64,000 bases of DNA from Candidatus Nomurabacteria bacterium (GCA_020632015.1 JACKGI010000003.1:65421-129420), one strand, 5' to 3'. Counted from the first letter of the stretch, positions 4,777-19,017 are shown. A program made the numbers and translations. Notes: generated by a model from the sequence alone, not told the origin.

Positions 4777-5409
4777 ATGTCAGATAGATGGACAGAAAAT
4801 GTTAAGACAAATCTCTTGCCACTGAGTATTGAGAAAAATGATCTCAGAAAAGCCTTGGCTGAGTGGTTTTATACTGGTAATACATACGACCTTAGTTATC
4901 CTGATGAAAATTGCGAACTATGTAATCACCAAGGAATCAGGTTTCAGTTTGAAATTCAAAATTATCTTACCAAGAGTATCCTTTTAATTGGTTCAGAATG
5001 TATATTGCGTTTTTCTATTTCTGCAGTTGATGATCAAGGAAAAGTCTTAGACCAGAAAGAAACCACCAAAAAAGTTCATAAAGACAGACGGCAGTTAATA
5101 TCAGATGCAAGAACAAAGCGAGTAATTAATAGCTTGGTTGAATTAGCACAAAAAGACACAAAGTTTGACGGGATTGATAGTTCTATTGAATATTTTCAAG
5201 AGAGAGGTGCTTTTTCTCCTAAACATCTATTATTTTTACTTTGGAGGATGAAAGAGAGCGGTGTCTCTTTCAATAAGTCAGATTTCAAAATGACAATTAA
5301 AAGAAACAGAGAAAAGGATCAACTTTTAGATATGAAAGACTGGGAGGTTAGAAAAATATTACCAGCAATGTCTGCCTCACAACAAAAATGGTACCACGAG
5401 CATTCTTAA
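4777..5409 (+). CDS. hypothetical protein with an N-terminal CxxC motif
   Basis: 210-aa ORF containing CELCNHQGIRFQFEIQN...LLIGSECILRF. Its stop overlaps the convergent recombinase stop (TTAA). Confidence 0.5.
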   Translation: MSDRWTENVKTNLLPLSIEKNDLRKALAEWFYTGNTYDLSYPDENCELCNHQGIRFQFEIQNYLTKSILLIGSECILRFSISAVDDQGKVLDQKETTKKVHKDRRQLISDARTKRVINSLVELAQKDTKFDGIDSSIEYFQERGAFSPKHLLFLLWRMKESGVSFNKSDFKMTIKRNREKDQLLDMKDWEVRKILPAMSASQQKWYHEHS

Positions 5410-6701
5410 TTGATACTTAGCGAGAGTGTTTTATTTTTTAATATTAATTTACTTTCCAAACTTTCGAGCAATCTACGTTTTTCATCAATATTTCCATCTT
5501 TCAATATAAACTTGAAGTAAGTCTTAATATCTTTATCCGATACTTTGATTGCAGTACTTTTACCAGACAAAGCCAATTGAAATTTCTTGAATCTAGTCAC
5601 TTCTTCTTTAAGTTTCTTTAGCAGAGTATTTTCTTTTAACTTTATAGTGTCAACTAAATCTTGTAATTGTTTAATTAAATCATTTTCGTTTATATACCCA
5701 CATTTACAATTCTTGTCTTTTGCTTTTGTACAGCCATAGTAGATATGAGTATTAAACTTTCCATTCTTTAATTTCTTGTATTTTTCGTCTGCACTAATAC
5801 CAGAGCCGCACAGACCACAGGTCATTAGCTTGGTAAAAGCGAATTCTTTATCTTGTCTAGTTTTGAGTTGGTTGCCTTTTAGTTGTAATTGAACGGCATC
5901 AAATAGTTCTTTAGTAATTATTGGTTCATGTTTTCCTTTGTACCAAATACCAGCACCTCTTGGGTATTCAAACTCACCATAGTAGAAAGTATTTTCTAAG
6001 AGTTTGTATATGTTGCCGAGGCTGAGATGCTTCTTCCCAAGATGAGTACGAAAGTTTAAATCAAATTTAAGCCAATGATAGAGCTTTCTGCCTGACCATT
6101 GTTCATGGGCAACTTTTTCAAATATCTGCTTGATGACTGGTGCTCTGTCGGGGTCGATAAGACATTCATTCTTTCTGTCTAGTCTCCGTTCTTTTATATA
6201 GCCAGTAGCGGCTGTAGTTGGCCATAATCCAAGTTCACACCTTGCTCTTAGTCCTCGCTTCACATTAATACCCCGGTTGTCATTCTCTAGTTTTGCTTGG
6301 CTACAAAGAATCATTAAGAGAAACTTCTCATTTGGAGAGTTGCTGAATGTCTGTCCATATGTGCGAATAGATAAGAGTTTCCGTTCATCCATCAAATCAA
6401 CTACAGAGCCTAAATCTCCAGCGTTTCTACTTAATCTATCTGGTGCCCACGTAAGAATAGCGTTGAACTTTTCTTGCTTTACATCACCTAGTAATTCTTT
6501 GAATACTGGTCTGTTACCAGAATCCTTGGCTGACTTAGACTCACGTCTTATATCTACAACATCAATATTTTCACGCTCAGCGATTTGGAGCATTTCATTC
6601 ACTTGAGATTCAATTGATAGAGCTTGTCGCTCGTCACTCTCAGTACTTTTTCTTGCATACAAGCAGTATTTTAATTTCTCCACCGTTGCTCCTTCTGACA
6701 T
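5406..6701 (-). CDS. large serine recombinase (rec1)
   Basis: N-terminal resolvase motif YARKSTESDERQALSIESQ; the recombinase-domain and zinc-ribbon cysteines (TCGLCGSG...YYGC); and the coiled-coil C-terminus. Homologous to the 15423-16934 product (shared HEPIITKELFDAVQ). Confidence 0.85.
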   Translation of the reverse strand: MSEGATVEKLKYCLYARKSTESDERQALSIESQVNEMLQIAERENIDVVDIRRESKSAKDSGNRPVFKELLGDVKQEKFNAILTWAPDRLSRNAGDLGSVVDLMDERKLLSIRTYGQTFSNSPNEKFLLMILCSQAKLENDNRGINVKRGLRARCELGLWPTTAATGYIKERRLDRKNECLIDPDRAPVIKQIFEKVAHEQWSGRKLYHWLKFDLNFRTHLGKKHLSLGNIYKLLENTFYYGEFEYPRGAGIWYKGKHEPIITKELFDAVQLQLKGNQLKTRQDKEFAFTKLMTCGLCGSGISADEKYKKLKNGKFNTHIYYGCTKAKDKNCKCGYINENDLIKQLQDLVDTIKLKENTLLKKLKEEVTRFKKFQLALSGKSTAIKVSDKDIKTYFKFILKDGNIDEKRRLLESLESKLILKNKTLSLSIN

Positions 6702-6879
6702 ATCTATATTAATGACAGAACCACAAACCCTGCATAGCTATGCAAACAACAGAAACGTTATATACTCGCTTAGCAAAGGTTGAGTTTTGCGATATGATTG
6801 CCTTTAATAGCTTGGGAAGCTATTATATTGAACACAACAAAGACCTAACCCGACAGCTTGCTGGCGATATGGTCGTAAA

Positions 6880-6997
6880 ACCCGCTAGAGATCAAAGGAC
6901 TCCCAGTCAGAGTCACTCTAGCGGGTCATACCTGGAAACGGGTATGGGTCTGGCCGAAAGGTTGGATCGCAATGGCTGGGAGCCTTTTGGTATCCCA
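6880..6997 (+). ncRNA. candidate structured RNA or recombination-site region (unclassified)
   Basis: Consecutive stems: CCCGCTAGAG/CTCTAGCGGG enclosing GACTC..GAGTC; CATACC/GGTATG; CTGGCC-GAAA-GGTTGG with G.U pairs valid only on the + strand; CTGGGA/TCCCAG. Confidence 0.3.
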
Positions 6998-7028
6998 GTA
7001 TTTAACAAAATTAAATCCCGCTAGATTT

Positions 7029-7490
7029 ATGACAAATGAACAAACAAAGAAATGTAAGGAATGCCAGATGGACATTCCTAAAAAAGCACGACGGTGTCCT
7101 CATTGCCGAGCTAAACAAGGAATTGGATTGGGAGGACTAATATTAATTCTATTTCTTGGAGGATCTATCCTATCAGTTGTGATGTCCACGATAAGTGATA
7201 TCAGTAGTACCTCTAATACTAACTACGATGTAGGGACATATGTGCCTCCAGTTCGTGAAGGGGCATTTGAATTAGGAACATACAAAGTTGAATCAACTGA
7301 ATTCGCATATATCAATCCAAAAGAAGTTAACCTTTGGCAGTCATATTCTGACCGAAAGAAAGTTGGCTCAGTGAAAGAACACGCTGTGGTTGAGGTAACT
7401 GCTTATGATGAAGCGAATGACTACTGTAAAGTAACGGCTGGTGAGCAGACGGGCTGGACGGCATGTAATTGGTTAGTAAAAGCAGAGTAA
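7029..7490 (+). CDS. zinc-ribbon, TM and SH3b-like domain protein
   Basis: CKEC...CPHC zinc ribbon, one TM helix, C-terminal SH3-like segment. Start moved to ATG 7029 because upstream codons lie in the structured intergenic region. Confidence 0.55.
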   Translation: MTNEQTKKCKECQMDIPKKARRCPHCRAKQGIGLGGLILILFLGGSILSVVMSTISDISSTSNTNYDVGTYVPPVREGAFELGTYKVESTEFAYINPKEVNLWQSYSDRKKVGSVKEHAVVEVTAYDEANDYCKVTAGEQTGWTACNWLVKAE

Positions 7491-7492
7491 TT

Positions 7493-8929
7493 TTATCCCA
7501 GTAGGATACCTCGCTTTTTAGGTTTGCGATTCACTAGTATCTCAAGAATTGACATCGAAAAGGCGTCGGCTAGATCGTCGTGTTTTTCAACTCCAAAGTG
7601 AATTAATTCCTGCTCTAGTTTTGAGGATGCTCCAAAGGGAAAGAATACCTGTCCCGCACTTAACGGTGTGGCAGCTAAACTCAGCCGTTCACGCTTATCT
7701 CCTTGTGGTCTGATGCCTTCGACTTTAACATCATCTTCCTTAAGCTGTTGCACGATTGCTTCTTGATAGGCTACGTTCTCAATAAAGAACAATGGATCAA
7801 GTAAATACTTGGAGCGGAGTTTGTATTCAAGAAGCTTTATCTCCTGACAAGTCTCAGGAAAACTTAATCGTTTGTGTACGATTTCAGGTAGAATGTAAAG
7901 ATAAAGTTTTCTATCTTTCTCACAAGCTAGTATAGGTACTATTGCTGTGAAGTCAGCGTAGCTTTGTTTTGAAATAGCTAAATCAACTCCCACATATATT
8001 CCAAGCTGATGCATATCAGTGGGTATGTCGTGATAATGCTTGATCCATAGAGGATCTATGATTTGTCCTTCGTCAGCTATTAGTCTAAGTAGGTATTCTC
8101 GCTCCCATGCTTTAGCACTCATGACCTCTTTCTTGAGTTCAGCTAATGACTCAGGAGTTGTAAACTTTTCAGGCCATAAACACTCTCCGTTCTTGTCGAT
8201 AAGCGGAAACGCCTTGAATACACCTGACACCTCATCATTCTGAATCTTCTCTCGTAATCGCAAGATAAGTGAATCGTCATGGACTAAATTACCGATTAGA
8301 ATAATCTTTGTACCTAGATCACCCGAGGGAATAATTTCACTGGTAAACCAATTGAATGTCTTGTCTCGACCCTCTTGGGTTTTAGTGGAGCTAATGTCTT
8401 CAATGTCGTCACAGATAATTAAATCAGGTCGATGACTTTTATGTCGCAGTCCACGCATACTTTGATCGGCAGAAAGGACAGTAATGCGTGCATCATACTT
8501 AGGAATTACAATTGAAGATGCTCTCCATTCGTCTTGTGGTTCCTCAAACGGTCCAAGGTCTTGTCGCAAAAGTTCATTCCGTTCCAACTCTGCTTTAATG
8601 TTTTGTAGTAGCTGTTTCGCTTGAGGTTGTGTACGGGAGATTAACAGCACAAACTTTTTTTGTTGTACTCCAAGTATCGACCAAATTGGGTAGGACAGTG
8701 AAAAAATAGTGGACTTGGCAGATCCGCGGAAGGCTACCAAAACTGCTAGTTTTAGATCAGTCCGTTCAGTTATTTCAATCATTTCAGAATGAAACTTTGC
8801 ACTTGGATATTTCAGGTATTCACTAAAATACACAGGCAAGAAATAACCATGACTACGTGTAGTTATTTCACGTCTCACTAACGGATCAGAGATAACTCGT
8901 TCAAGTAATTCAAGTGGCATGTTATACAT
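7493..8929 (-). CDS. phage terminase large subunit-like protein
   Basis: Walker A-like FRGSAKST, Walker B LIICDDIED, and C-terminal RNase H-like nuclease acidic residues (GVDLA, ENVAYQ, HDDLADAF). Length 478 aa. Confidence 0.75.
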   Translation of the reverse strand: MYNMPLELLERVISDPLVRREITTRSHGYFLPVYFSEYLKYPSAKFHSEMIEITERTDLKLAVLVAFRGSAKSTIFSLSYPIWSILGVQQKKFVLLISRTQPQAKQLLQNIKAELERNELLRQDLGPFEEPQDEWRASSIVIPKYDARITVLSADQSMRGLRHKSHRPDLIICDDIEDISSTKTQEGRDKTFNWFTSEIIPSGDLGTKIILIGNLVHDDSLILRLREKIQNDEVSGVFKAFPLIDKNGECLWPEKFTTPESLAELKKEVMSAKAWEREYLLRLIADEGQIIDPLWIKHYHDIPTDMHQLGIYVGVDLAISKQSYADFTAIVPILACEKDRKLYLYILPEIVHKRLSFPETCQEIKLLEYKLRSKYLLDPLFFIENVAYQEAIVQQLKEDDVKVEGIRPQGDKRERLSLAATPLSAGQVFFPFGASSKLEQELIHFGVEKHDDLADAFSMSILEILVNRKPKKRGILLG

Positions 8930-9308
8930 GATCAGTTTTGATTAAATTAGCGTATTGAAGTGCTTGTTTAATAGTGTCTTTTTGTTCATCAGATAGCTCG
9001 GTATGTTTTGCTTCTTGAGTACGTAGTGGTTTGCTAGCGAAACGTTGGTGATTATTAGTAAGCCACAGACGTATGGCTGAGAACTTGCGATCTTTGATTA
9101 ACTGAAGCAACTGACTTTCACTCATGTCATTTACGAATGCCACACCTTCAGCTTCCGCTTCGGTAAGTCGTTTAGCAAAGTCTGAGTCTTCTCGTTTCCA
9201 TCGGTAGACAGTATTGCGTGAGATACCAGATTTTTCGCACGCAACTTGTATGATCGGCACTTTCCGTACCTCATCAAGAAATGTATCCATGTGACTAATT
9301 TTCTTCAT
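8922..9308 (-). CDS. HTH protein, probable terminase small subunit
   Basis: N-terminal HTH (SGISRNTVYRWKRE). Overlaps and precedes the large terminase gene. Confidence 0.5.
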   Translation of the reverse strand: MKKISHMDTFLDEVRKVPIIQVACEKSGISRNTVYRWKREDSDFAKRLTEAEAEGVAFVNDMSESQLLQLIKDRKFSAIRLWLTNNHQRFASKPLRTQEAKHTELSDEQKDTIKQALQYANLIKTDHV

Positions 9309-10578
9309 AGAAATTTTTGATTATCTCTACTTTGTTTCCAGTTAGTTTCTCGTATCGCCGACGAGCCAGTTCACAAAAAATCGGCTCTGACTCAAGAGAA
9401 TAGACACGACGATTCAGACTCTCAGCACAGACGAGCGTGCTGGCAGAACCTGAGAACGAGTCGAGAATAATGTCGTTTGGTTTTGTGCACCGCTTAATCG
9501 CTTTCTCATGCAGACTTGGCGGTTTAGATGTTGGATGTTCGTATTCACTAATCTTGATTCGTTTCGAAGCCCAGATATTGCTCACTGATTCAACTAAGTC
9601 ATTCCCAACGGCGACTTCAGCATTCATGATTTCAGTACAGTTCGTCATCTTCTTAGCGAGGTATGGAGATCCTTTTGTTCCGTAGACGCAGAATTCAATT
9701 GCTTTGTTAAAGGCGACAGTAGGGGTAGGGCTGGCATTGTTCTTTAACCAGATGTTGAGTCTACGGTTCTTTATACCTAGCTCGTTATATAAGGTCTGAA
9801 AAATCCAGACCCAAGCTTCATCACACCAGTACATGATGTGAGTATTCGGCGTGGCAACCGATAGCCCTGCTTCAAGTGTCTTGCGAATAAATGATTTGTA
9901 GTCATCGGGACTCTTGTTGTCCTGTACGTTACCTCCATAGTTAGCTTTGTTCCCGACGCCTTTGTTGTAGTCGAGGTTAATGTTGTATGGAGGATCTGAA
10001 TAGATCATGCTTGTTTTCTCTCCATCAAAGAGTACTTGAACAGCTTTTGAATCAGTAGAGTCACCACAGAGGATTTTGTGTTTACCTAGGATTAGCAAAT
10101 CACCTCGTTTTATATCGGTTGTCTTAATTTCCTTGAGTGCTTTTTCTTCATCAAACTCATCATCCTCGCTATGTTTATCTGTATCCCAGAAATCAGCTAA
10201 CTCGATATCTTCAAATCCAGCTTCAGTCAGGAGGTCAATATCGAAGCTCTTTAAAGCGTCGAGATCCCAGTCCCCGCCCAGCTTATTTGAAGATATGAGA
10301 TACTGCTCAAATTCTTTTTCAGTCAGTTTTCGATTAGGAACTCGTACATCAATCTCCTCATCGCCACGACCTAACAACTGCAATACTTTGAGACGTTGGT
10401 GTCCTGCGATTACTCGACCTGTAGTGTCGATGGCTGGTATTTCTACTAAGTTGAATTTACTCAGACTCTTTTTTAGTTTCTCCAACTGAATAGGGCTGAT
10501 AGTACGAGGGTTCTTCTCGTAGGGGACAAGATCACTTACTTTTCGCTTCTGTGTACTCCACTCTAGTTTTTTAGTCAT
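9295..10578 (-). CDS. ParB-like nuclease domain fused to a DNA methyltransferase (N6-A/N4-C, beta class)
   Basis: N-terminal ParB/Srx-like motif (NPRTISP...GHQR). Motif IV SDPPYN is followed later by motif I DSFSGSAST. Confidence 0.85.
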   Translation of the reverse strand: MTKKLEWSTQKRKVSDLVPYEKNPRTISPIQLEKLKKSLSKFNLVEIPAIDTTGRVIAGHQRLKVLQLLGRGDEEIDVRVPNRKLTEKEFEQYLISSNKLGGDWDLDALKSFDIDLLTEAGFEDIELADFWDTDKHSEDDEFDEEKALKEIKTTDIKRGDLLILGKHKILCGDSTDSKAVQVLFDGEKTSMIYSDPPYNINLDYNKGVGNKANYGGNVQDNKSPDDYKSFIRKTLEAGLSVATPNTHIMYWCDEAWVWIFQTLYNELGIKNRRLNIWLKNNASPTPTVAFNKAIEFCVYGTKGSPYLAKKMTNCTEIMNAEVAVGNDLVESVSNIWASKRIKISEYEHPTSKPPSLHEKAIKRCTKPNDIILDSFSGSASTLVCAESLNRRVYSLESEPIFCELARRRYEKLTGNKVEIIKNFYEEN

Positions 10579-10620
10579 AACTATATTTGTTTATTTGTTA
10601 ATAAAAACAAAGCAAACAAA

Positions 10621-10697
10621 AAGCCTGACTTCATACGAAGACTCAACACATCAAATTGACGTGCTCAGGCTTTCTGTATGAAATCAGGCGGGTTAAA
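10621..10697 (-). terminator. Rho-independent terminator-like long hairpin (minus strand)
   Basis: On the minus strand GCCTGATTTCATAC...GTATGAAGTCAGGC is followed by TTTTT, downstream of the 10728-11084 gene. Confidence 0.5.
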
Positions 10698-10727
10698 AAT
10701 TAAGCGGCTCGATTTCTGTATATGTTT

Positions 10728-11084
10728 TTAGAAGAGTAGTCCTGCTTCAAGGAGTTCGATTGCACTGGCATCTTGCCATCGCTTACCCTTAAGCTTCTGC
10801 TGAGCTGAAAGGTCCAACATTTCTTCAATCTCTGAATCGGTACTCTCTGGAAAGAAAACACCTTGGCTAGTCACCTTGCCATCGCGGACTGCATCATTGA
10901 AGTAGTCGGGGACAGCGTATTTGATAGTGACATCACCATCTGATCCGTCGATTGAGACAGACTGCTTTTCTAAGAACACTCTTTGTTCTTCGGAATCACG
11001 CCAGTTTTTCTCAGACTTATTACGCAACTTCCTTGTAGGGAAGGTTAGCGAAGTGAGCTTGAGATTGCTGAAACGTAACTCCAT
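10728..11084 (-). CDS. hypothetical protein
   Basis: Start moved to the internal ATG at 11084. On the minus strand TGCTATTAT lies 6 nt upstream, matching the promoter style of this genome. Confidence 0.5.
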   Translation of the reverse strand: MELRFSNLKLTSLTFPTRKLRNKSEKNWRDSEEQRVFLEKQSVSIDGSDGDVTIKYAVPDYFNDAVRDGKVTSQGVFFPESTDSEIEEMLDLSAQQKLKGKRWQDASAIELLEAGLLF

Positions 11085-11104
11085 AGGAATATAATAGCAT
11101 GGAT

Positions 11105-11143
11105 TTTGTGAAAAAGTAAAAATGCTGTATACTATGTACACCT
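11105..11143 (+). promoter_or_regulatory. promoter (extended -10 TGTATACT) overlapped by the imperfect palindrome TGTATACTATGTACA, a possible LexA-type operator
   Basis: -10 at 11128-11133 with TG at 11126-11127. ATG lies 10 nt downstream. Palindrome at 11126-11140. The operator role is inference. Confidence 0.35.
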
Positions 11144-11761
11144 ATGATAGATAACTTAAGTGATAAGGACCGCAGAGCGTTCTCCTTCATCCGAAACATG
11201 ATCATTAGTCAAGGCAGAAGTCCCTCACTGCGTGAAATAAACACAGTAACCAAAGACAGCTCCCCTCGCTCAGCTGGTCTAGCAATTGACCGACTGATAA
11301 AGGCAGGACTGCTTGAAAGGAAGGGGCGAAATTTGATCCTTACATCTGAACGCGATTCAAGTTCTGTACATACTGTGAACGTAAAACTCGTTAACAGTGT
11401 TGCTTGCGGTACACCAATGCTTGCTGAGGAAAATGTTGAAGCGGAAATCGCTGTATCAACCGCCTTAGCTAAGCCAGGTTTCCAATACTTTCTGCTACGC
11501 GCTAGTGGAAACTCCATGGATCAAGCGGGTATTAACTCTGGTGATCTACTATTGATTCGTCAGCAAACTACAGCAGAGAATGGACAGCGAGTAGTGGCGC
11601 TCATCAATGATGAAGCGACTGTAAAAGAATTTGAAAAGAACGGTGAAGTAGTAATACTCCGCCCACGTTCATCTAATAAGGAGCTTAGACCTATCGTACT
11701 TACCGATAACTGCATTATTCAGGGAGTGGTACAAGCAGTACTCCCTTCAGATATTTACTAA
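11144..11761 (+). CDS. LexA-type repressor (winged HTH + S24 peptidase)
   Basis: N-terminal LexA-like wHTH. S24 catalytic Ser in GNSM and Lys in TVKEF. The cleavage-region motif VACGTPMLAEE has CG where LexA has AG. Confidence 0.8.
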   Translation: MIDNLSDKDRRAFSFIRNMIISQGRSPSLREINTVTKDSSPRSAGLAIDRLIKAGLLERKGRNLILTSERDSSSVHTVNVKLVNSVACGTPMLAEENVEAEIAVSTALAKPGFQYFLLRASGNSMDQAGINSGDLLLIRQQTTAENGQRVVALINDEATVKEFEKNGEVVILRPRSSNKELRPIVLTDNCIIQGVVQAVLPSDIY

Positions 11762-11764
11762 ACT

Positions 11765-11977
11765 ATGGCAAACAAAAGAATTACAGTGACCGGAGAATCA
11801 GATTCGGGTCGTAATACAAATTTTCACGATAATCGCACAGGTGCAGATATGAGCCGTGCTCAATTTGTGAAGAAGATTGAAGATGGTAGTTACGACAACT
11901 ACCACGTTCGGAAGATTAACAATATAAAGACCCCTGTTTCAAATCCTGACGGAAAGGAAGGAAACAATCTTGACTAG
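11765..11977 (+). CDS. small conserved-looking protein of unknown function (weak DUF3892-like resemblance)
   Basis: 70-aa ORF starting 3 nt after the LexA-like stop. The C-terminal ...PDGKEGNNLD recalls the ...NNL motif of DUF3892 proteins; this rests on memory only. Confidence 0.5.
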   Translation: MANKRITVTGESDSGRNTNFHDNRTGADMSRAQFVKKIEDGSYDNYHVRKINNIKTPVSNPDGKEGNNLD

Positions 11978-11980
11978 TAT

Positions 11981-12931
11981 ATGAATTTATCAAATGCACA
12001 ACTACTGAATTTCAAAGACCGAATTAAATTCACCGATGAAGATAAGAGAAAATTCCAACCTCAAATTGACCACTTGGTTTCTTCAATCAAGTCACATATT
12101 TCGGAAAAAACTGACACACGAGTGTTGAAAGTTCTGCAGTGCGGGTCTTGGCGAAAGGGTACTATTTTAAAGCCCAAAGATGATGTTCCTGTTGATATAG
12201 ATCTCGTTTTCTTTTTAGATATTGATCACGAGGATATTGATTCTTTAGAGCAAGCAAATAATTTTATTTTGCCGATTCTAAAAAGCATCTATCCCAAAAA
12301 GGAGGATAAGGATTTCTGGGATAGTCCGAAGACCGCAGGAATTGAATTTGTTGCTTCTGGATTAAATGTTGATGTTGTACCTGTTGGCAAAACGGACTAT
12401 GAAGACTACGTTGCTCAACCTGACAAAGATTCTAGGCAATACTTCACCTCGCCCAAAAAGCAATTGGAGTTTATTTCTGAAAGAAAAGAGGCAAATGTAA
12501 ATTTCACAGCAATCGTTCGTATCTTAAAAAAATGGCGTAACGTTCACGATGTTGATCTACCATCCTTCGCTATTGAACTAATTGTTGCTCATTTAGATAT
12601 AGTGAAAGGAGTTGAAATAGACATACAAGAGGCAATTTTGAGATTTTTGAAATTAGTAAGCAAAAAACAAATGCCTGTAATATTGTTTGACACTCCATAT
12701 GGCAGTTATGCCCATGATGGTGCGCATACCTACATAGCTGACCCTACCAATCAAGAAAATAATATTATGAAGAACTCATCTGATCTTGATTGGAATCGTA
12801 TTCGTATTGATGCTGATACAGCATTTGAAACCCTTTTATTAGCTGAAGAGCAGGATCATATAACCACTACAATAGATTTATGGAAAGAGGTGTTTGGTTC
12901 TAGCTTTAACATTGACCCTATAGAAAATTAA
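11981..12931 (+). CDS. CD-NTase/SMODS-like nucleotidyltransferase (putative signalling-nucleotide synthase)
   Basis: Pol-beta NTase signature QCGSWRKGT...VPVDIDLVFF, a third acidic strand NVDVVPV, and the OAS/cGAS/DncV-type helix KKWRN...LPSFAIELIVAH. Length 316 aa. Confidence 0.7.
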   Translation: MNLSNAQLLNFKDRIKFTDEDKRKFQPQIDHLVSSIKSHISEKTDTRVLKVLQCGSWRKGTILKPKDDVPVDIDLVFFLDIDHEDIDSLEQANNFILPILKSIYPKKEDKDFWDSPKTAGIEFVASGLNVDVVPVGKTDYEDYVAQPDKDSRQYFTSPKKQLEFISERKEANVNFTAIVRILKKWRNVHDVDLPSFAIELIVAHLDIVKGVEIDIQEAILRFLKLVSKKQMPVILFDTPYGSYAHDGAHTYIADPTNQENNIMKNSSDLDWNRIRIDADTAFETLLLAEEQDHITTTIDLWKEVFGSSFNIDPIEN

Positions 12932-12932
12932 T

Positions 12933-13406
12933 ATGACACAATCTGAACTTAATCAACTTTATAAAAGTATTGCTACTGACTTTAAGTTAGCTACACGCAA
13001 GACAGAATTGTGGGAGTTAAATTATTGTTACGACATATTACATGATGTTAAAAAGTTTATTCTTTTTGACTATGCAACAGCAGTGTCTTTAATGCTTTTA
13101 GATAATAATCAAACCACTCTCAAAGCAAAGAAATATCAATTAGGTACAGCTGTACAGCAAGCAAGCGATCGCCCAGGCTCAATCGAATGGGAGGATGGGG
13201 AAGGTAATGTTTTGACTGTGGTTGTCAGTAATACTGACCGGTATTTAAATCTGAGTCACGAGCAGAAATTGGCATTTTATGATGAATTAAGAATTCCTAC
13301 ATGGGGTCCAAGTAGTCTAGATGCAAATTTTTATGGCTTGCCATCTCAAACTGCTAAAAGATACACATCAGGTAATAGTGGCGTGGTACGCACTGATTTC
13401 AATTAG
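12933..13406 (+). CDS. uncharacterised 157-aa protein between the NTase and the 2-TM protein
   Basis: ORF starts 1 nt after the NTase stop and ends 1 nt before the next start. No motif recognised. Confidence 0.6.
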   Translation: MTQSELNQLYKSIATDFKLATRKTELWELNYCYDILHDVKKFILFDYATAVSLMLLDNNQTTLKAKKYQLGTAVQQASDRPGSIEWEDGEGNVLTVVVSNTDRYLNLSHEQKLAFYDELRIPTWGPSSLDANFYGLPSQTAKRYTSGNSGVVRTDFN

Positions 13407-13407
13407 T

Positions 13408-13929
13408 ATGGAAACTCTGCAAAAACTTTATAAAGTGGCTGACCAGACTCGAACAATTCATAGTTTACTTAGGGATAAACTAGTTTTTATTGAAACCCTT
13501 GTGCTTGTGTATGTGACAGTAGGATCAGCGATTTCGGCAATGCTTATATTTGCACCCATATCACCTAGTTACGAGATGTGGGTAGGAATTTTTATAGCTA
13601 GCATTTTTATTGTTAGTTTAATTCCTAACGCTTTTGACTTTAAACAGAAAATTTTGGAAAGGTCGCTAGCTGTTAACGCCTGGGGTAAGTGGGTTCGTGA
13701 CGCAAAATCCTTGTGTGATAACGGTGGTACTTCAGATGAAGTAAAACATATATCTGACCAGTACAAAGTAGTCATGGATGAAACTCCTTTGATACCTGAT
13801 CGTGTATTTAATAAGTACAAGCAAAAGCATCTGCAAAAAGTAGCCATATCTAAAGCACTGAGTGAGACCCCTTTTAGATCAATTAGAGAAATTAAGAAAT
13901 CTTTGAAAAATGATGATTTGTCGAAATGA
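13408..13929 (+). CDS. SLATT-like two-TM effector candidate
   Basis: Start ATG 13408 lies 1 nt after the upstream stop. Two adjacent TM helices (FIETLVLVYVTVGSAISAMLIF, WVGIFIASIFIVSLIPNAF) are flanked by helices. This is the SLATT-type architecture that typically partners SMODS enzymes. Confidence 0.55.
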   Translation: METLQKLYKVADQTRTIHSLLRDKLVFIETLVLVYVTVGSAISAMLIFAPISPSYEMWVGIFIASIFIVSLIPNAFDFKQKILERSLAVNAWGKWVRDAKSLCDNGGTSDEVKHISDQYKVVMDETPLIPDRVFNKYKQKHLQKVAISKALSETPFRSIREIKKSLKNDDLSK

Positions 13930-13947
13930 TAGAAAGATGATTACTGT

Positions 13948-14703
13948 ATGTTTGGATTTTTTAATAAACCATCTAGAAAAAAAGATTTAAAAGCTGTTAA
14001 GGATTTTCTAATTGCTCATTTTCAGCAAATCTATAGCGCTAAGGATAGGATCCCTCCGGATGTCTTTGACGTGTCCATGTTTTTTATAACAGAAGCGATC
14101 CAGCTATTTGACTCAATAGATATTCTGAGCCGAAAAAATCACCTTAGAGGGTGCTTGCCAATTGCTCGAACAATCATGGAGATTTCAATTAATCTTCAAT
14201 ACATATATAGAAAAGATGTAGAACAACGAGCTAAGCTCTTTAAACTTGACTCGATGTATGAGATGAGAAGAAAAGGAGACAGTATCGAAGACGAGTCTAA
14301 AGATAATCCTGTTTATCAAGAGTATATGAAAAAACTTGATGAAGAACTAAAAGACTATAAAAAAGAAAAGAAGACTATTTATGAAAAGGCAGCCGAAGTA
14401 AATATGAAATCATTTTATGTCAGTACATATCGACGTCTGTCTGAATATGTTCACTCGGGCTATAGACCAGCTCGTGATTTTGATGAAGAGGGTCCATATA
14501 ATGATTTTTTAAAGAGGGTGGTATTTACAGATACTGTTATGTTTATGTTGATGGGTCTTAAATCGGTGTGTGAGGAATATGATTTAGATGGCGGATTTAT
14601 GGTTATTGATGATCCTGGCTACAAAGGAATTGTATTCTTTTCCACTAACCCTAAAAAGGAAGAGGAACGCAGTAAAGCTTATGAAGAAAGTAAGAAAAAG
14701 TAA
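13948..14703 (+). CDS. helical protein of unknown function (possibly DUF5677-like)
   Basis: 251-aa ORF in the same operon. Motifs ARTIMEISINLQYIY...RAKLF and LSEYVHSGY. The family assignment is tentative. Confidence 0.5.
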   Translation: MFGFFNKPSRKKDLKAVKDFLIAHFQQIYSAKDRIPPDVFDVSMFFITEAIQLFDSIDILSRKNHLRGCLPIARTIMEISINLQYIYRKDVEQRAKLFKLDSMYEMRRKGDSIEDESKDNPVYQEYMKKLDEELKDYKKEKKTIYEKAAEVNMKSFYVSTYRRLSEYVHSGYRPARDFDEEGPYNDFLKRVVFTDTVMFMLMGLKSVCEEYDLDGGFMVIDDPGYKGIVFFSTNPKKEEERSKAYEESKKK

Positions 14704-14713
14704 TATATAAAAT

Positions 14714-15274
14714 ATGGAAAATAGAGCCCACATGGAGCCAATAGCAAATCGAATTGCAAGATTTCAGAATGGTCATCCGATTGAAATTATCGACACGTTA
14801 TTAAACTCAATTGATAATCATTTCAATAATGAGATCCGTTTGACTATTCAAGAAGATCACTATCAAACATCTTTAATGTTTTTAGGTATTCACGCTGTTG
14901 CGCTCACAATCTCAGAAGGTTTTTTTAATGTAGGTGGTCCAGATGGATATAAAAAGTTCTTAGAAAACTATGTTGATGGAAGCACTTCCGATACTAAATT
15001 TTCAGATATAGCAACAGAAATTCATAATTGGCGTAACATACTTGCACATCAATGGCTTGGTATTGGCGGATATGATATCGGATATGACTATACTCAAACT
15101 GAGGGATGGGTCGAGCGTGACGGAATAAAATTTATAAATCCACGAATCTATTGTGAACACTATCTAGCTGCCTTTAAAGCAGGGGGCAGAATGTGGGATT
15201 ATGACAAGCGTTTTCCTGAAGAAGAATTGAAACAAATCAAAGTGCGATTACTTAAAAAGTTTTTGTCTAAATGA
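14714..15274 (+). CDS. HEPN-domain protein (putative RNase)
   Basis: Canonical HEPN motif R-N-x-x-x-H in IHNWRNILAHQW. Predicted all-helical. Last gene of the operon. Confidence 0.6.
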   Translation: MENRAHMEPIANRIARFQNGHPIEIIDTLLNSIDNHFNNEIRLTIQEDHYQTSLMFLGIHAVALTISEGFFNVGGPDGYKKFLENYVDGSTSDTKFSDIATEIHNWRNILAHQWLGIGGYDIGYDYTQTEGWVERDGIKFINPRIYCEHYLAAFKAGGRMWDYDKRFPEEELKQIKVRLLKKFLSK

Positions 15275-15422
15275 AATGTTCTGTAAAGTTACAGACTAAT
15301 GTAACTATTTAAGATATTGAGAAATCTGTCACTTTTGTCACTTTTTCTTGCGCACGAGGAACTATCAAATTGGATTGTGAATAGTACTAAATCGGTCAAG
15401 CCAGGCTTGACCGTCCACGGTT

Positions 15423-16934
15423 CTAACTCGAGGAAGCCCGCACTTTAGGACAATCAACGGAAACAGAACCCGAGGCCGCCGCCGCGCAAGCGGCGGCGTG
15501 CCATGTGGCGGCCAAAGCAAAGGGCGAACGGCGCGGCACGCACAGCGTGCGCGCGGAAATGGACGGGTTCGAACCGATCTTTTTGAGGAAATCTCGATTT
15601 TCTTCGAGATTTCCTCGTGAAGTGATTTTTCCGGCTTGGTTGAGCGATTTAAGGAAGCGGGTCAAAGGTTCGAACCGATTATCACTCGTTCGCTCAAAAA
15701 CGGCGATTTGCTCTTTGAGGTCGGTCTTGCGATTTAGGAGCACTTGCTTTTTGTTTGTGTACTCGGTGTGTGTAATGGAACCATCAAGTTGGAGATCAAG
15801 CAAAGCGTCGAGTTTCTTCTCGATCGTTGTTATCTCACTTTCGAGTTTTTGAACGGACGACCGTTCCGCGTGTTGGTGGTGCGTGCGTTCTTTTTCTAAA
15901 ATTTGCACGCACGCATCCACCCACGCGGACGGCAAAGAAACTTTTTGGACTTCTTCTCGTACTTGCTCGGCTATTGCTTCCTCGCGCACATAGGGTTGGG
16001 TACATACTCCGCGGCGTTTGGTGCAGCGAAGGTAGTTGTGTCCTTTCTGAGTCTCGGTGGTTATCATGCAATCACACTCGCCACAACGGAACACGCCGCG
16101 GTAACTGTACGGCTTCAGTTTGGGTGCGCGAGTAGTGCGCGACTTGCTTCCCATGATGCTCTGTACCGCATCAAAAAGTTTCTTAGTGATAATCGGTTCA
16201 TGGACTCCGTCATAGAGTTCACCACCATATCTGATAGCTCCGTAGTAGATTGGATTCTTGAGTAGGTACTGATAGTTTGAAATTGAAAGGAGTTTATCCC
16301 GCTTCCCAACCAAGCCAGATTCGTTGATAACCTTTCGGAGTTTCAATAAGGGGTATTCGCCAGTTGCATAAAGCTCAAATGCTTTGCGGATGAGGGTTGC
16401 CTTGTCTGTATCGGGGACAATAGTGCGATTTGTTTTGTCATTCAAATATCCGATAGGTGCATATCCTGGCCATACGCCATTGCGGAGCTTCTGGCGAATA
16501 CCCCTCCTGATGTTCTCCGAAAGGTTATCAACGTAGTATTTGGATTGGCCGAAGGCGATGTTGAGCATGAACTTACCTTGCGGTGTATTTTCAAACCACA
16601 GGGTTGGAAACTTCAAGTACTTCAACTTACCAACATCCAGCAGATAAATAATCTTGCCGCCATCTACACTATTGCGCGCCAACCTATCCGCGTGCCACGC
16701 TACGATACCTTCAACATCGCCGTTCTCGACGCTCGCAAGCATCTCATTGAAAACTTCTCGTCCTGGTTCTTTCGCCGTCTTGCTCTCAACAAACTCACGG
16801 ACGATATGCAAATTCTCTTTTCGTGCAAACTCTCTCAATTCATGGAGCTGCGCCTCTATGCTTAGCACTTGCCTCTGCGCTTCGTCCGTGGACTTGCGAG
16901 CGTAGAGATAAAATTTTTGCGGAGTATCTTTCAT
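15423..16934 (-). CDS. large serine recombinase (rec2)
   Basis: YARKSTDEAQRQVLSIEAQ catalytic region, zinc-ribbon cysteines (RCGECDC...LRCTKRRGVC) and the coiled-coil C-terminus. Start set at the MKDTPQKF ATG. The last ~49 codons run through repeat A' and 14 nt into flanking DNA. Confidence 0.8.
   Translation of the reverse strand: MKDTPQKFYLYARKSTDEAQRQVLSIEAQLHELREFARKENLHIVREFVESKTAKEPGREVFNEMLASVENGDVEGIVAWHADRLARNSVDGGKIIYLLDVGKLKYLKFPTLWFENTPQGKFMLNIAFGQSKYYVDNLSENIRRGIRQKLRNGVWPGYAPIGYLNDKTNRTIVPDTDKATLIRKAFELYATGEYPLLKLRKVINESGLVGKRDKLLSISNYQYLLKNPIYYGAIRYGGELYDGVHEPIITKKLFDAVQSIMGSKSRTTRAPKLKPYSYRGVFRCGECDCMITTETQKGHNYLRCTKRRGVCTQPYVREEAIAEQVREEVQKVSLPSAWVDACVQILEKERTHHQHAERSSVQKLESEITTIEKKLDALLDLQLDGSITHTEYTNKKQVLLNRKTDLKEQIAVFERTSDNRFEPLTRFLKSLNQAGKITSRGNLEENRDFLKKIGSNPSISARTLCVPRRSPFALAATWHAAACAAAASGSVSVDCPKVRASSS
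15438..15571. repeat. inverted repeat A' (reverse complement of 17202-17335)
   Basis: 134 bp aligned by eye, with about 6 mismatches clustered around 15536-15556. Confidence 0.85.
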
Positions 16935-17201
16935 ATGGAAACTATAATAGCCGTCCTTGGTGTACCCAACCCGAGAAGACCTCGAATTGCCCAAAGACGG
17001 CCATTAAAAAAGACCTTCTCGATTTGGTTGGGTACACTCACATTCTATCATACACAGAATAAACAGAGCAAAAATTTTCGGACAATCCAAATACTCAAAA
17101 TCGCTTCACGCCGCTCAAATAGAGCAGACAAAAAGATCGGTTGTTTTGTGCAACAAAACGCGTGCGTGGTTGTGAACCTTAAATATTCACAACAAGCACG
17201 A

Positions 17202-17335
17202 CGAACCCGTCCATTTCCGTGCGCACGCTCTCTGTGCCGCGCCGTTCGCCCTTTGCTTTGGCCGCCACATGGCACGCCGCCGCTTGCGCGGCGGCGGCCT
17301 CGGGTTCTGTTTCCGTTGATTGTCCTAAAGTGCGG
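17202..17335. repeat. inverted repeat A (inner copy)
   Basis: Reverse complement of 15438-15571. Contiguous with repeat B. Confidence 0.85.
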
Positions 17336-17628: not shown

Positions 17629-19017
17629 TTACTTCTCTTCGTCGAGCTGCGTCTGCTCTTCTTCAGTTGGTTGCGGCTTCTCCGGAGTGTCCACCACCTT
17701 GTCTGAAGTCGAGTTGGCCAGCTTGCCCATGATGGACTTGCCGAGCGGGCTCTGTGCGAACGCTTCGACCGCCGAGGCCAGGTGGGTGCCACCCTTGGAA
17801 GTGAATAGGTCCATGACGTTGGTCATCCCTTCGCCAGGCTTACCGGCGTTGGAGATGACCTTGACGTCGGCCGACTGCAGTGCTTTCGCCTGCTCGCTGC
17901 CGACCGTCCGGTAGGCTCCGATCGCCTCGATCGCCCGCAGGTACTCCTGGTACTCGGGCAACGAAGCGATCTTCTCCGCCAGAGCGATCTGGGCATTGAC
18001 CGGCGCCATGAGGATTGCCTGTTCGGCCTCACCTTTAGCGACACCGTTCACACGCACACCCTCGGCTTCACGCTTGGCAGCTTCGAGCTTACCATCCGCT
18101 TCACGGATAGCAACCTCGCGCTGCTGGTCAGCAGCGACAATGGCCGCGTCGCGATCGATCTCGGCTTGTTGCACCTGACCGACTTTGACGACTGCCATTT
18201 CCTTGGCTTTGGTGTTGGCTTCTTCGGTCTTCACCTCCTGCGACGCCTTCTGCTGCGCGATGCCGACGACCTTTTCCTTCTCGGCCGTCCGTTCACCGAC
18301 AGCCTGTTCGGCCTGCTGGCGTTGGATGTCGACTTCACGTTGCGCGGTTATCTCCGCCATTTCGGCCTCACGTTTGTTCGACGCGACTTCCTTCCGGCTT
18401 TCCATCTCGATGTGAGACTTCTTCTTCGCCATGATGTTGGAAATTACGTGGCTGTCGTGGCTGTCACGGATGTCCATGAGCTCCATTGCCTTGACTGGTT
18501 CCACACCCCACTCGGCGAGTTGTTCGGTAACCTCGTTAGTGAAGAGGTCGCCAAACTGTGCGCGCTCGAGCATGATCTTGTCGATCACGTCAGAGGCGAG
18601 CACCTTGCGGACGGCGCCTTGGACGATCAGGTCCAATTGCTCGTCGAGGTCTCCCATACTCGCTACACGCTGTGCAGCACGCGCCGTATCGGCAATCCGG
18701 AAGAACGCCGTAACGTCGACCATGAACGGTACCCGGTCCTTGTCATACGCTTCGTAGCCCTTGAGGCTGCGATCGAAGTTGGACACAGGAAGTTCGATGA
18801 CAGTGACCCCAAACCTCGGAATCCAGCTCGGCCAACGGTAATAGACGTTGCCACTGTTGTTGCCGGTGCCGTAGGGTGTGGTCTTATGGCTACTCTGGAC
18901 GATATGCACCATATTGGTGCTCACGACCTTGCGGAAGAGGATCGCCAGAATGATGACAAAAACGAGCAGGATGCCGACCAGAATGAGTCCGACCGACAAG
19001 AAGGGAATATTTAACAT
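17629..19017 (-). CDS. SPFH/Band-7 flotillin-family protein (FloT/YqiK-like)
   Basis: N-terminal TM helix, SPFH domain, and a long Ala/Glu-rich flotillin-type coiled coil (EAEMAEITAQREVDIQRQQAEQA...). GC-rich codon usage. Confidence 0.8.
   Translation of the reverse strand: MLNIPFLSVGLILVGILLVFVIILAILFRKVVSTNMVHIVQSSHKTTPYGTGNNSGNVYYRWPSWIPRFGVTVIELPVSNFDRSLKGYEAYDKDRVPFMVDVTAFFRIADTARAAQRVASMGDLDEQLDLIVQGAVRKVLASDVIDKIMLERAQFGDLFTNEVTEQLAEWGVEPVKAMELMDIRDSHDSHVISNIMAKKKSHIEMESRKEVASNKREAEMAEITAQREVDIQRQQAEQAVGERTAEKEKVVGIAQQKASQEVKTEEANTKAKEMAVVKVGQVQQAEIDRDAAIVAADQQREVAIREADGKLEAAKREAEGVRVNGVAKGEAEQAILMAPVNAQIALAEKIASLPEYQEYLRAIEAIGAYRTVGSEQAKALQSADVKVISNAGKPGEGMTNVMDLFTSKGGTHLASAVEAFAQSPLGKSIMGKLANSTSDKVVDTPEKPQPTEEEQTQLDEEK

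Follow-up and report, generated by a model that had tools for sequence, protein, structure and literature searches.

A HORMA-domain protein encoded between a CD-NTase and a two-transmembrane effector: a probable TRIP13-less CBASS cassette in Candidatus Nomurabacteria

A stretch of 64,000 nucleotides from Candidatus Nomurabacteria bacterium (GCA_020632015.1, JACKGI010000003.1:65421-129420), analysed at its full length and referred to here as the window, raises the question of what a 157-amino-acid (aa) protein is doing between a nucleotidyltransferase and a small membrane protein. The three genes lie on the + strand, with a 316-aa cyclase at 11981-12931, the 157-aa protein at 12933-13406 and a 173-aa protein with two transmembrane (2TM) segments at 13408-13929. 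The original prediction described the middle gene as an orphan and a candidate new signal receptor or adaptor. The reading favoured here, and considered probable, is that it encodes the HORMA ancillary subunit of a three-gene cassette belonging to the cyclic-oligonucleotide-based systems for antiphage signalling (CBASS). This subunit would activate the cyclase, as a switch that has neither the TRIP13 remodeller nor the N-terminal tail on which the remodeller acts.

The label of orphan does not hold for the 157-aa protein, which scores above the curated Pfam threshold for bacHORMA_1 (PF18138): with a gathering threshold of 35.6, it reaches 64.2 bits (E 1.7e-17) over profile positions 12-169 of 169. 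PADLOC HORMA matches it as well (E 1.3e-21). PF18138 is present in 34/34 of its close homologues, and the gene once called unknown was already accounted for by a curated family. The AlphaFold2 model, with 17 homologues in the input, has a predicted local distance difference test score (pLDDT) of 89.7 and a predicted template modelling score (pTM) of 0.86. It contains three helices backing a β-sheet and the C-terminal safety-belt hairpin of the HORMA fold, with the safety-belt region kept. A Foldseek comparison with HORMA and other named folds, proposed along with the original prediction, returned HORMA. The best matches are the HORMA protein of E. coli MS115-1 in its complexes with CdnC (6p8v_H and 6u7b; E 2e-9, TM-score 0.79-0.80, root-mean-square deviation 2.8 Å over ~160 columns), followed by the eukaryotic Rev7 and Mad2. 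Sequence searches of the PDB, with the single sequence or a profile, gave nothing meaningful and only the fold search succeeded; identity to canonical HORMA proteins is only ~24-25%. The protein is thus a member of a CBASS cassette of the sensor or adaptor type, as had been suggested, but as a HORMA-domain protein it is not new. A phage structural protein or a gene of recognised phages was rejected as its identity, because no relative was found in the GenBank phage collection or in the IMG/VR viral contigs.

The upstream gene encodes a CD-NTase (cGAS/DncV-like nucleotidyltransferase) with matches to Pfam SMODS (2.8e-10), NCBIfam CBASS_cyclase_a (245 bits, the cut-off being 200) and PADLOC Cyclase PDLC00808 (3.4e-76). 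Its closest PDB sequence is CdnC of E. coli MS115-1 (6p80, E 7.7e-18). The catalytic residues are present as GS at 54-55, D72/D74 and D131, with the DID motif aligned to the D72/D74 pair of CdnC. The E. coli MS115-1 type III CBASS (CdnC-HORMA-Trip13/Pch2-NucC) is the closest solved relative of both proteins, by sequence for the cyclase and by structure for HORMA.

The downstream gene matches the PADLOC CBASS ‘2TM’ Effector models PDLC00681/00684 (~5e-23) over nearly the full model length. Its start at 13408 is favoured over an in-frame ATG at 13321 by 29 aligned homologues and the NCBI gene call. As originally described, it has no recognised sensor domain. It consists of two hydrophobic segments (residues ~24-52 and ~54-79 by hydropathy) and an all-helical cytosolic C-terminal part of ~95 residues, and its AlphaFold2 model (pLDDT 82) has six helices. 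The conserved cytosolic motifs are ADQTR[ST]IH and FNKYKQxHLQKVAISKAL. No solved relative was found in the PDB by sequence or fold search.

Two known membrane protein families offer a comparison for this effector. Cap15 joins two transmembrane helices to a β-barrel sensor of cyclic dinucleotides, and a Cap15-like barrel was rejected for the window protein because its model is all-helical. The SLATT proteins (SMODS and SLOG-associating 2TM) are similar in layout, as the window protein also has two central transmembrane helices, flanking cytosolic helices and a gene beside SMODS. The matches to SLATT_4, SLATT_5, DUF4231 and the DRT-associated RTasSLATT (DRT, defence-associated reverse transcriptase) are weak and all below curated thresholds. 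NCBIfam SLATT_4 reaches 21.5 bits on the window protein against a cut-off of 55, and among its homologues Pfam SLATT_4 is found in 4/30 and SLATT_5 in 2/30, at E 4e-4 or weaker. The protein is described here as a SLATT-like CBASS effector.

Type III CBASS, as reportedly defined by Millman et al. in 2020, consists of a cyclase, an effector, HORMA and TRIP13. The window carries the first three of these components: a CD-NTase with an intact active site, an adjoining HORMA gene and an effector gene matched by PADLOC. From the HORMA match, the CdnC-like cyclase and the 2TM effector, the cassette is therefore read as a HORMA-regulated, type III-like CBASS. The operon has no gene for the TRIP13/Pch2 AAA+ ATPase, and the system, which works like a type III CBASS with one HORMA protein yet lacks this component, is a TRIP13-less variant. 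It differs from the E. coli system in its effector also, a 2TM membrane protein in place of the nuclease NucC. A full-text literature search returned no mention of CBASS HORMA operons without Trip13, which is weak evidence of novelty as the main CBASS surveys were not covered.

The absence of TRIP13 was established by comparison with plasmid-borne canonical relatives, which share the order of cyclase then HORMA and the close coupling of the window genes. In these, a TRIP13-like ATPase of 296-298 aa follows HORMA directly (3/3 inspected). Searches with the three operon TRIP13 proteins, by tblastn and hidden Markov model (HMM), found none in the window and 16 further loci (225 kb in total), the best E value being 0.06. 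A TRIP13 HMM search of the whole set of 49 loci found none beyond the three controls. These loci, given L numbers below, had come from searches at the protein level, from look-ups of contigs and from scans of two collections. Open reading frames (ORFs) with a Walker-A motif occur in the window only at 37-40 kb and 54.5 kb.

The second missing part is the tail. It has been reported that Pch2/TRIP13 is a negative regulator that threads residues 2-10 of the E. coli HORMA protein through its pore, and that a HORMA-ΔN variant evades TRIP13 (10.1101/694695). The Ser/Thr-rich, disordered N-terminal tail of bacHORMA_1 is not found in the window protein, in which helix αA begins at residue 3 of the model; in this it also differs from the E. 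coli protein. Among the members of the window HORMA clade, 36/39 have no overhang, their alignment to the clade profile beginning at residue 1. By comparison, 89/91 distant relatives have an N-terminal overhang of 6-14 residues (mode 10), which is 57% Ser/Thr, as in MSTYTQSSTYTTTD. The window HORMA ATG is preceded by an in-frame stop three codons upstream, therefore no N-terminal extension is possible, and a stop within <=6 codons is found in 15/24 loci. The window clade, as judged from its sequences, is a natural counterpart of ΔN HORMA, for which the remodeller and the handle it acts on both appear to be lost. Because neither TRIP13 nor the Ser/Thr tail is present, the switch is probably one-way, without reset.

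Two distant relatives show another arrangement. In P0084 (462 aa) and P0147 (529 aa), an N-terminal CD-NTase-like region is fused to a C-terminal bacHORMA_1 domain, which the profile matches over residues 317-461 in the first and 384-528 in the second. These fusions are a second configuration without a free HORMA N-terminus for TRIP13.

The three genes are found together well beyond this locus. Scoring of the loci with home-made HMMs and BLAST gave 25 distinct cyclase-HORMA-2TM triads, most of them in Patescibacteria (Paceibacterota, Saccharibacteria and Nomurabacteria). Outside this group there is one triad in a metagenome-assembled genome (MAG) of Cyclobacteriaceae and one in a Leptospiraceae MAG. 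Both belong to defence islands, in which type I restriction-modification genes, for example, flank the triad, and neither has LexA or terminase context. The original prediction had been staked on HORMA and 2TM occurring together at other loci; with 25 triads across phyla they do, in every clade locus with enough DNA.

The junctions TAA-T-ATG (12929-12935) and TAG-T-ATG (13404-13410), and the three ORFs that they separate, read in the sequence as first described. At 24 distinct loci the cyclase stop and the HORMA start are separated by -4 to +6 nt, with a median of 1, and for the interval from HORMA to 2TM the gene calls give -8 to +22 nt, in most cases 1-6. Close packing is conserved across the relatives and is not a chance feature of the window. 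With regard to the co-translation stoichiometry read from the 1-nt junctions, this is ordinary operon architecture and alone is no proof of a stoichiometric complex. The cassette ends one apparent operon of five tightly packed + strand genes, which runs from a LexA-like gene through a 70-aa ORF to the cyclase, HORMA and 2TM.

The position of HORMA in the pathway is the point on which the present reading departs from the original prediction, according to which the 157-aa protein would act downstream of the nucleotide, as receptor of the nucleotidyltransferase product or as gate or adaptor of a sensor-less 2TM protein. This proposal has several observations in its favour. HORMA and this 2TM clade are strictly together wherever the cyclase is CdnC-like, the genes are closely coupled on both sides, no sensor fold is recognisable in the 2TM protein, and HORMA and 2TM distances stay correlated (partial r 0.49) once the cyclase is controlled for. 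On the other hand, HORMA domains bind peptides rather than nucleotides, and the nearest solved relative acts upstream. The E. coli HORMA protein binds CdnC mainly via helix αA and activates it, upstream of signalling (10.1101/694695). This CdnC-binding helix is conserved in the window clade, where αA is the most conserved HORMA segment (mean column identity 0.87, against 0.52-0.72 elsewhere).

The operons that use this effector without HORMA speak against a receptor role. L027 (metagenome contig Ga0114931_10000042, 3652-6546) has a LexA-like gene, another cyclase (PDLC00803), an E2 protein (PDLC00872, 3e-24) and a 2TM protein that is 53% identical to that of the window. The 254-aa protein in the place of HORMA was considered as a cryptic HORMA and rejected (hhalign probability 0.2%); it is the E2. 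This locus shares the mobile-element backbone of the window (TerS 41%, ParB-methyltransferase 42% and LexA-like protein 62% identity), and is a natural module swap that retains the effector but has E2 and another cyclase in the place of HORMA and the CdnC-like cyclase. Relatives of the 2TM protein at a greater distance (24-36% identity), matched by the same PADLOC model, are encoded in TGT-cyclase-2TM-OGG operons, which are type IV-like CBASS, on soil and sediment metagenome contigs (L037, L039, L044, L046, L048 and L049). The CBASS ‘2TM’ effectors of the E2 and TGT/OGG operons, at 24-53% identity overall, occupy the same place directly after or near the cyclase. Millman et al. in 2020 are said to have named the corresponding classes type II-short (E2) and type IV (TGT/OGG). 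These operons use E2 or TGT/OGG as ancillaries and the window operon uses HORMA.

Since the same 2TM family pairs with E2 or TGT/OGG ancillaries and no HORMA, it is unlikely that HORMA is the nucleotide receptor of the effector. From the occurrence of this family in operons without HORMA it follows that the effector would have to read the signal itself. Small transmembrane proteins are the commonest CBASS effector class and have been described as direct signal sensors, of which Cap15, which senses its ligand directly, is an example. Judged from the operon comparisons, HORMA fills an interchangeable ancillary slot as cyclase regulator, with the 2TM effector common to all three operon types. The claim that HORMA binds the nucleotide for the 2TM protein, or gates it, is unlikely to hold in view of the E. 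coli relative acting on CdnC, the conserved αA and the 2TM proteins found elsewhere without HORMA. The proposal as a whole is regarded as very unlikely. Most likely, HORMA senses infection and activates the cyclase. By analogy with the E. coli system, the window HORMA would bind a closure-motif peptide and activate its cognate CD-NTase, and the cyclase signal would in turn activate the effector.

The trigger of the system may involve the first gene of the operon. The LexA-like protein (205 aa, 11144-11761, +) is matched by TIGR00498 lexA with 134.3 bits against an equivalog cut-off of 110.95, and by Pfam Peptidase_S24 (6e-26) and LexA_DNA_bind. The catalytic dyad read from the translation is a Ser in SGNSM and a Lys in TVKEF. 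The putative cleavage site has Cys-Gly (VACGTP), the scissile pair of UmuD, in place of Ala-Gly. The protein is termed a predicted S24 autocleaving repressor. Its gene is syntenic in most Patescibacteria loci.

Immediately 5′ of this gene, a promoter-like site and an operator-like, TATAC-rich element span 11106-11143 (+), with a predicted role in its expression. The promoter-like sequence is TTGTGA-16-TATACT at 11106-11133. The motif GTATA(C/G)-N7-8-TTATAC(T) is found in the same position in eight other loci (L003, L004, L007-L009 and L011-L013) and overlaps the -10-like hexamer. It ends only ~5-10 nt before the LexA-like ATG, which suggests that the transcript has no leader or a very short one and that the gene is autoregulated.

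Similar to the CapH/CapP and CapW systems, a cleavable or damage-sensing repressor would thus head a CBASS operon, and by this analogy expression of the cassette is probably raised by DNA damage. CapH/CapP is a helix-turn-helix protein with a metallopeptidase and CapW is a WYL protein, whereas the window regulator would be a single LexA/S24-type protein. Unlike these, it is probably also the repressor of a mobile element.

These features bear on another account of HORMA, in which it is a constitutive, non-sensing activating subunit that, having no tail, cannot open and is always closed and bound to the cyclase. The trigger would then be derepression of the operon, with the LexA-like repressor cleaving itself upon SOS or DNA damage caused by phage, or binding of double-stranded DNA (dsDNA) by the cyclase. 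The hallmark of the open state is an ordered N-terminal β1 strand, formed by the HORMA tail (10.1101/694695), and the window clade has no β1 or N-terminal tail. The closed state is open to the E. coli HORMA protein even when it is empty, and dsDNA is a further requirement of E. coli CdnC:HORMA. The LexA-like gene with its conserved operator-like element heads the operon, and overexpression driven by DNA damage has been proposed as an ectopic activation of CBASS in CapH/CapP systems. Against this, the triads of L015, L020 and L021 have no LexA-like gene, and the safety-belt region is kept. Of the three proteins, HORMA also evolves fastest (mean pairwise identity 0.47, against 0.65 and 0.55 for the other two), which is a better fit to a phage-facing sensor than to a passive subunit. 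This account is considered possible but fairly unlikely.

Several points weigh against HORMA as the sensing activator of the cyclase. The absence of TRIP13 applies to the window and the loci searched. Contact between HORMA and the cyclase in the window clade would follow from homology to the E. coli pair and from the conservation of αA. No closure-motif trigger peptide has been established, the E. coli MS115-1 system included, and a full-text literature search found no closure-motif work after 2020. No nucleotide-binding fold is recognisable in the 2TM protein, so that its reading of the signal is argued from the operon comparisons. The mirror-tree distance correlations do not discriminate the partner of HORMA, as the three genes are all linked and the partial r of HORMA with the cyclase is 0.61, next to the value of 0.49 with 2TM. 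Because these correlations tie HORMA to both of its neighbours, there may be an additional, direct HORMA-2TM contact.

Such a contact is central to a bolder extension of the argument, which is quite unlikely as it stands. The window clade would represent a TRIP13-independent class of HORMA proteins, tail-less, non-resettable and probably with no canonical open state. The safety belt might clamp a motif of the effector or of the cyclase, and not a phage peptide alone, giving a membrane-tethered complex that is deployed by a LexA-controlled, terminase-bearing, satellite-like element in the ultra-small Patescibacteria. If this were true, the 157-aa protein would serve as a physical adaptor as well as an activator, and the original prediction would be partly vindicated.

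With HORMA as the sensing activator, the pathway may be pictured as follows. The LexA-like repressor would hold the operon at a low level, so that in the window basal control would probably be transcriptional. On infection, the HORMA safety belt would capture a phage-derived peptide. The closed, peptide-bound HORMA would then dock on the C-lobe of the cyclase via αA and license synthesis of a cyclic oligonucleotide, which in CdnC relatives is cAAA. The 2TM protein would bind this product through its conserved cytosolic helices, permeabilise the membrane and abort the infection. Without TRIP13 and the tail the switch could not be reset, which would be acceptable for abortive infection.

The cassette is carried on an element of ~10 kb (window 5406-15300) of the Nomurabacteria genome, itself a MAG. 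This consists of a backbone and a small ORF, the divergent LexA-like gene with the cassette, and variable cargo. The backbone (5406-10578, - strand overall; Pfam and PHROG matches) contains a serine integrase (5406-6701, -), a Zn-ribbon ORF (6972-7490, +), the terminase subunits TerL (7493-8929, -) and TerS (8922-9308, -) and a ParB-N6/N4 methyltransferase (9295-10578, -). The same backbone gene order is found in L001-L016, L024 and L028, and the synteny extends across MAGs at 45-90% protein identity. The cargo in the window is DUF5677 and a 186-aa ORF; elsewhere it is GmrSD, PemK, NUDIX or radical-SAM genes. There are no capsid, portal, tail or lysis genes on the element, and host-type genes flank it. 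It looks like a satellite, similar to the phage-inducible chromosomal islands, or a prophage that has been greatly reduced but still has a terminase of its own. A search for direct repeats at its ends gave no more than one weak pair of 31 nt, at 6633 and 15328, with 74% identity.

This setting allows for the cassette to serve the element itself, as a module for lysis and exit triggered by the SOS response or for addiction, with a holin-like 2TM protein. The cassette does sit directly behind the LexA-like repressor of an element that has integrase, TerS, TerL and methyltransferase and no lysis or structural genes. However, in other phyla the same triad is found in defence islands of the chromosome, at a distance from such elements, and the three genes all match established anti-phage families. 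The cassette is also co-oriented with the repressor, which is the position of exclusion genes expressed in lysogeny, and is not in the divergent packaging operon. In phage lambda, cI-rexAB is a case of exclusion genes linked to a repressor. A role for the cassette in service of the element is highly improbable, and defence against phage by a HORMA-regulated cyclase is preferred.

Two small ORFs adjoin the repressor gene. A 70-aa ORF (11765-11977, +) in the interval between repressor and cyclase matches Pfam DUF3892 at 22.1 bits, just under the cut-off of 22.3. This DUF3892-like protein is an optional passenger, otherwise present only in L004, L005 and L010; DUF2188 takes its place in L016 and elsewhere there is none. 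On the other side, the listed GTG start of a 137-aa ORF (10728-11141, -) leaves 2 bp to the divergent LexA-like start. A likelier start is an internal ATG at ~11084 (MELRFSN...), which gives a divergent promoter region of ~60 bp, as in related loci.

Beyond the element, a second large serine recombinase of 523 aa is encoded at 15423-16994 (-). Inverted repeats of 134 nt, 97% complementary, lie around it at 15438-15571 and 17202-17335. The recombinase lies in a stretch at 16-20 kb that has a GC content of ~50%, compared with ~40% for the genome, and contains an SPFH/Band-7 gene at 17629-19017. The region 15438-17335 could be an insertion sequence-like or invertible element, or an assembly chimera.

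The finding places a complete signalling defence cassette on a small mobile element in Patescibacteria, bacteria with tiny genomes whose interactions with phages are little known. HORMA and TRIP13 have been treated as an inseparable module for switching and resetting, in eukaryotic checkpoints and in bacterial type III CBASS. The clade described here spans several phyla and keeps HORMA and its cognate cyclase while dropping both TRIP13 and the tail, which makes it a natural experiment on the purpose of the remodeller. It suggests a one-shot switch for abortive infection, the leakiness of which is controlled by other means; in the window this is probably the LexA-type repressor.

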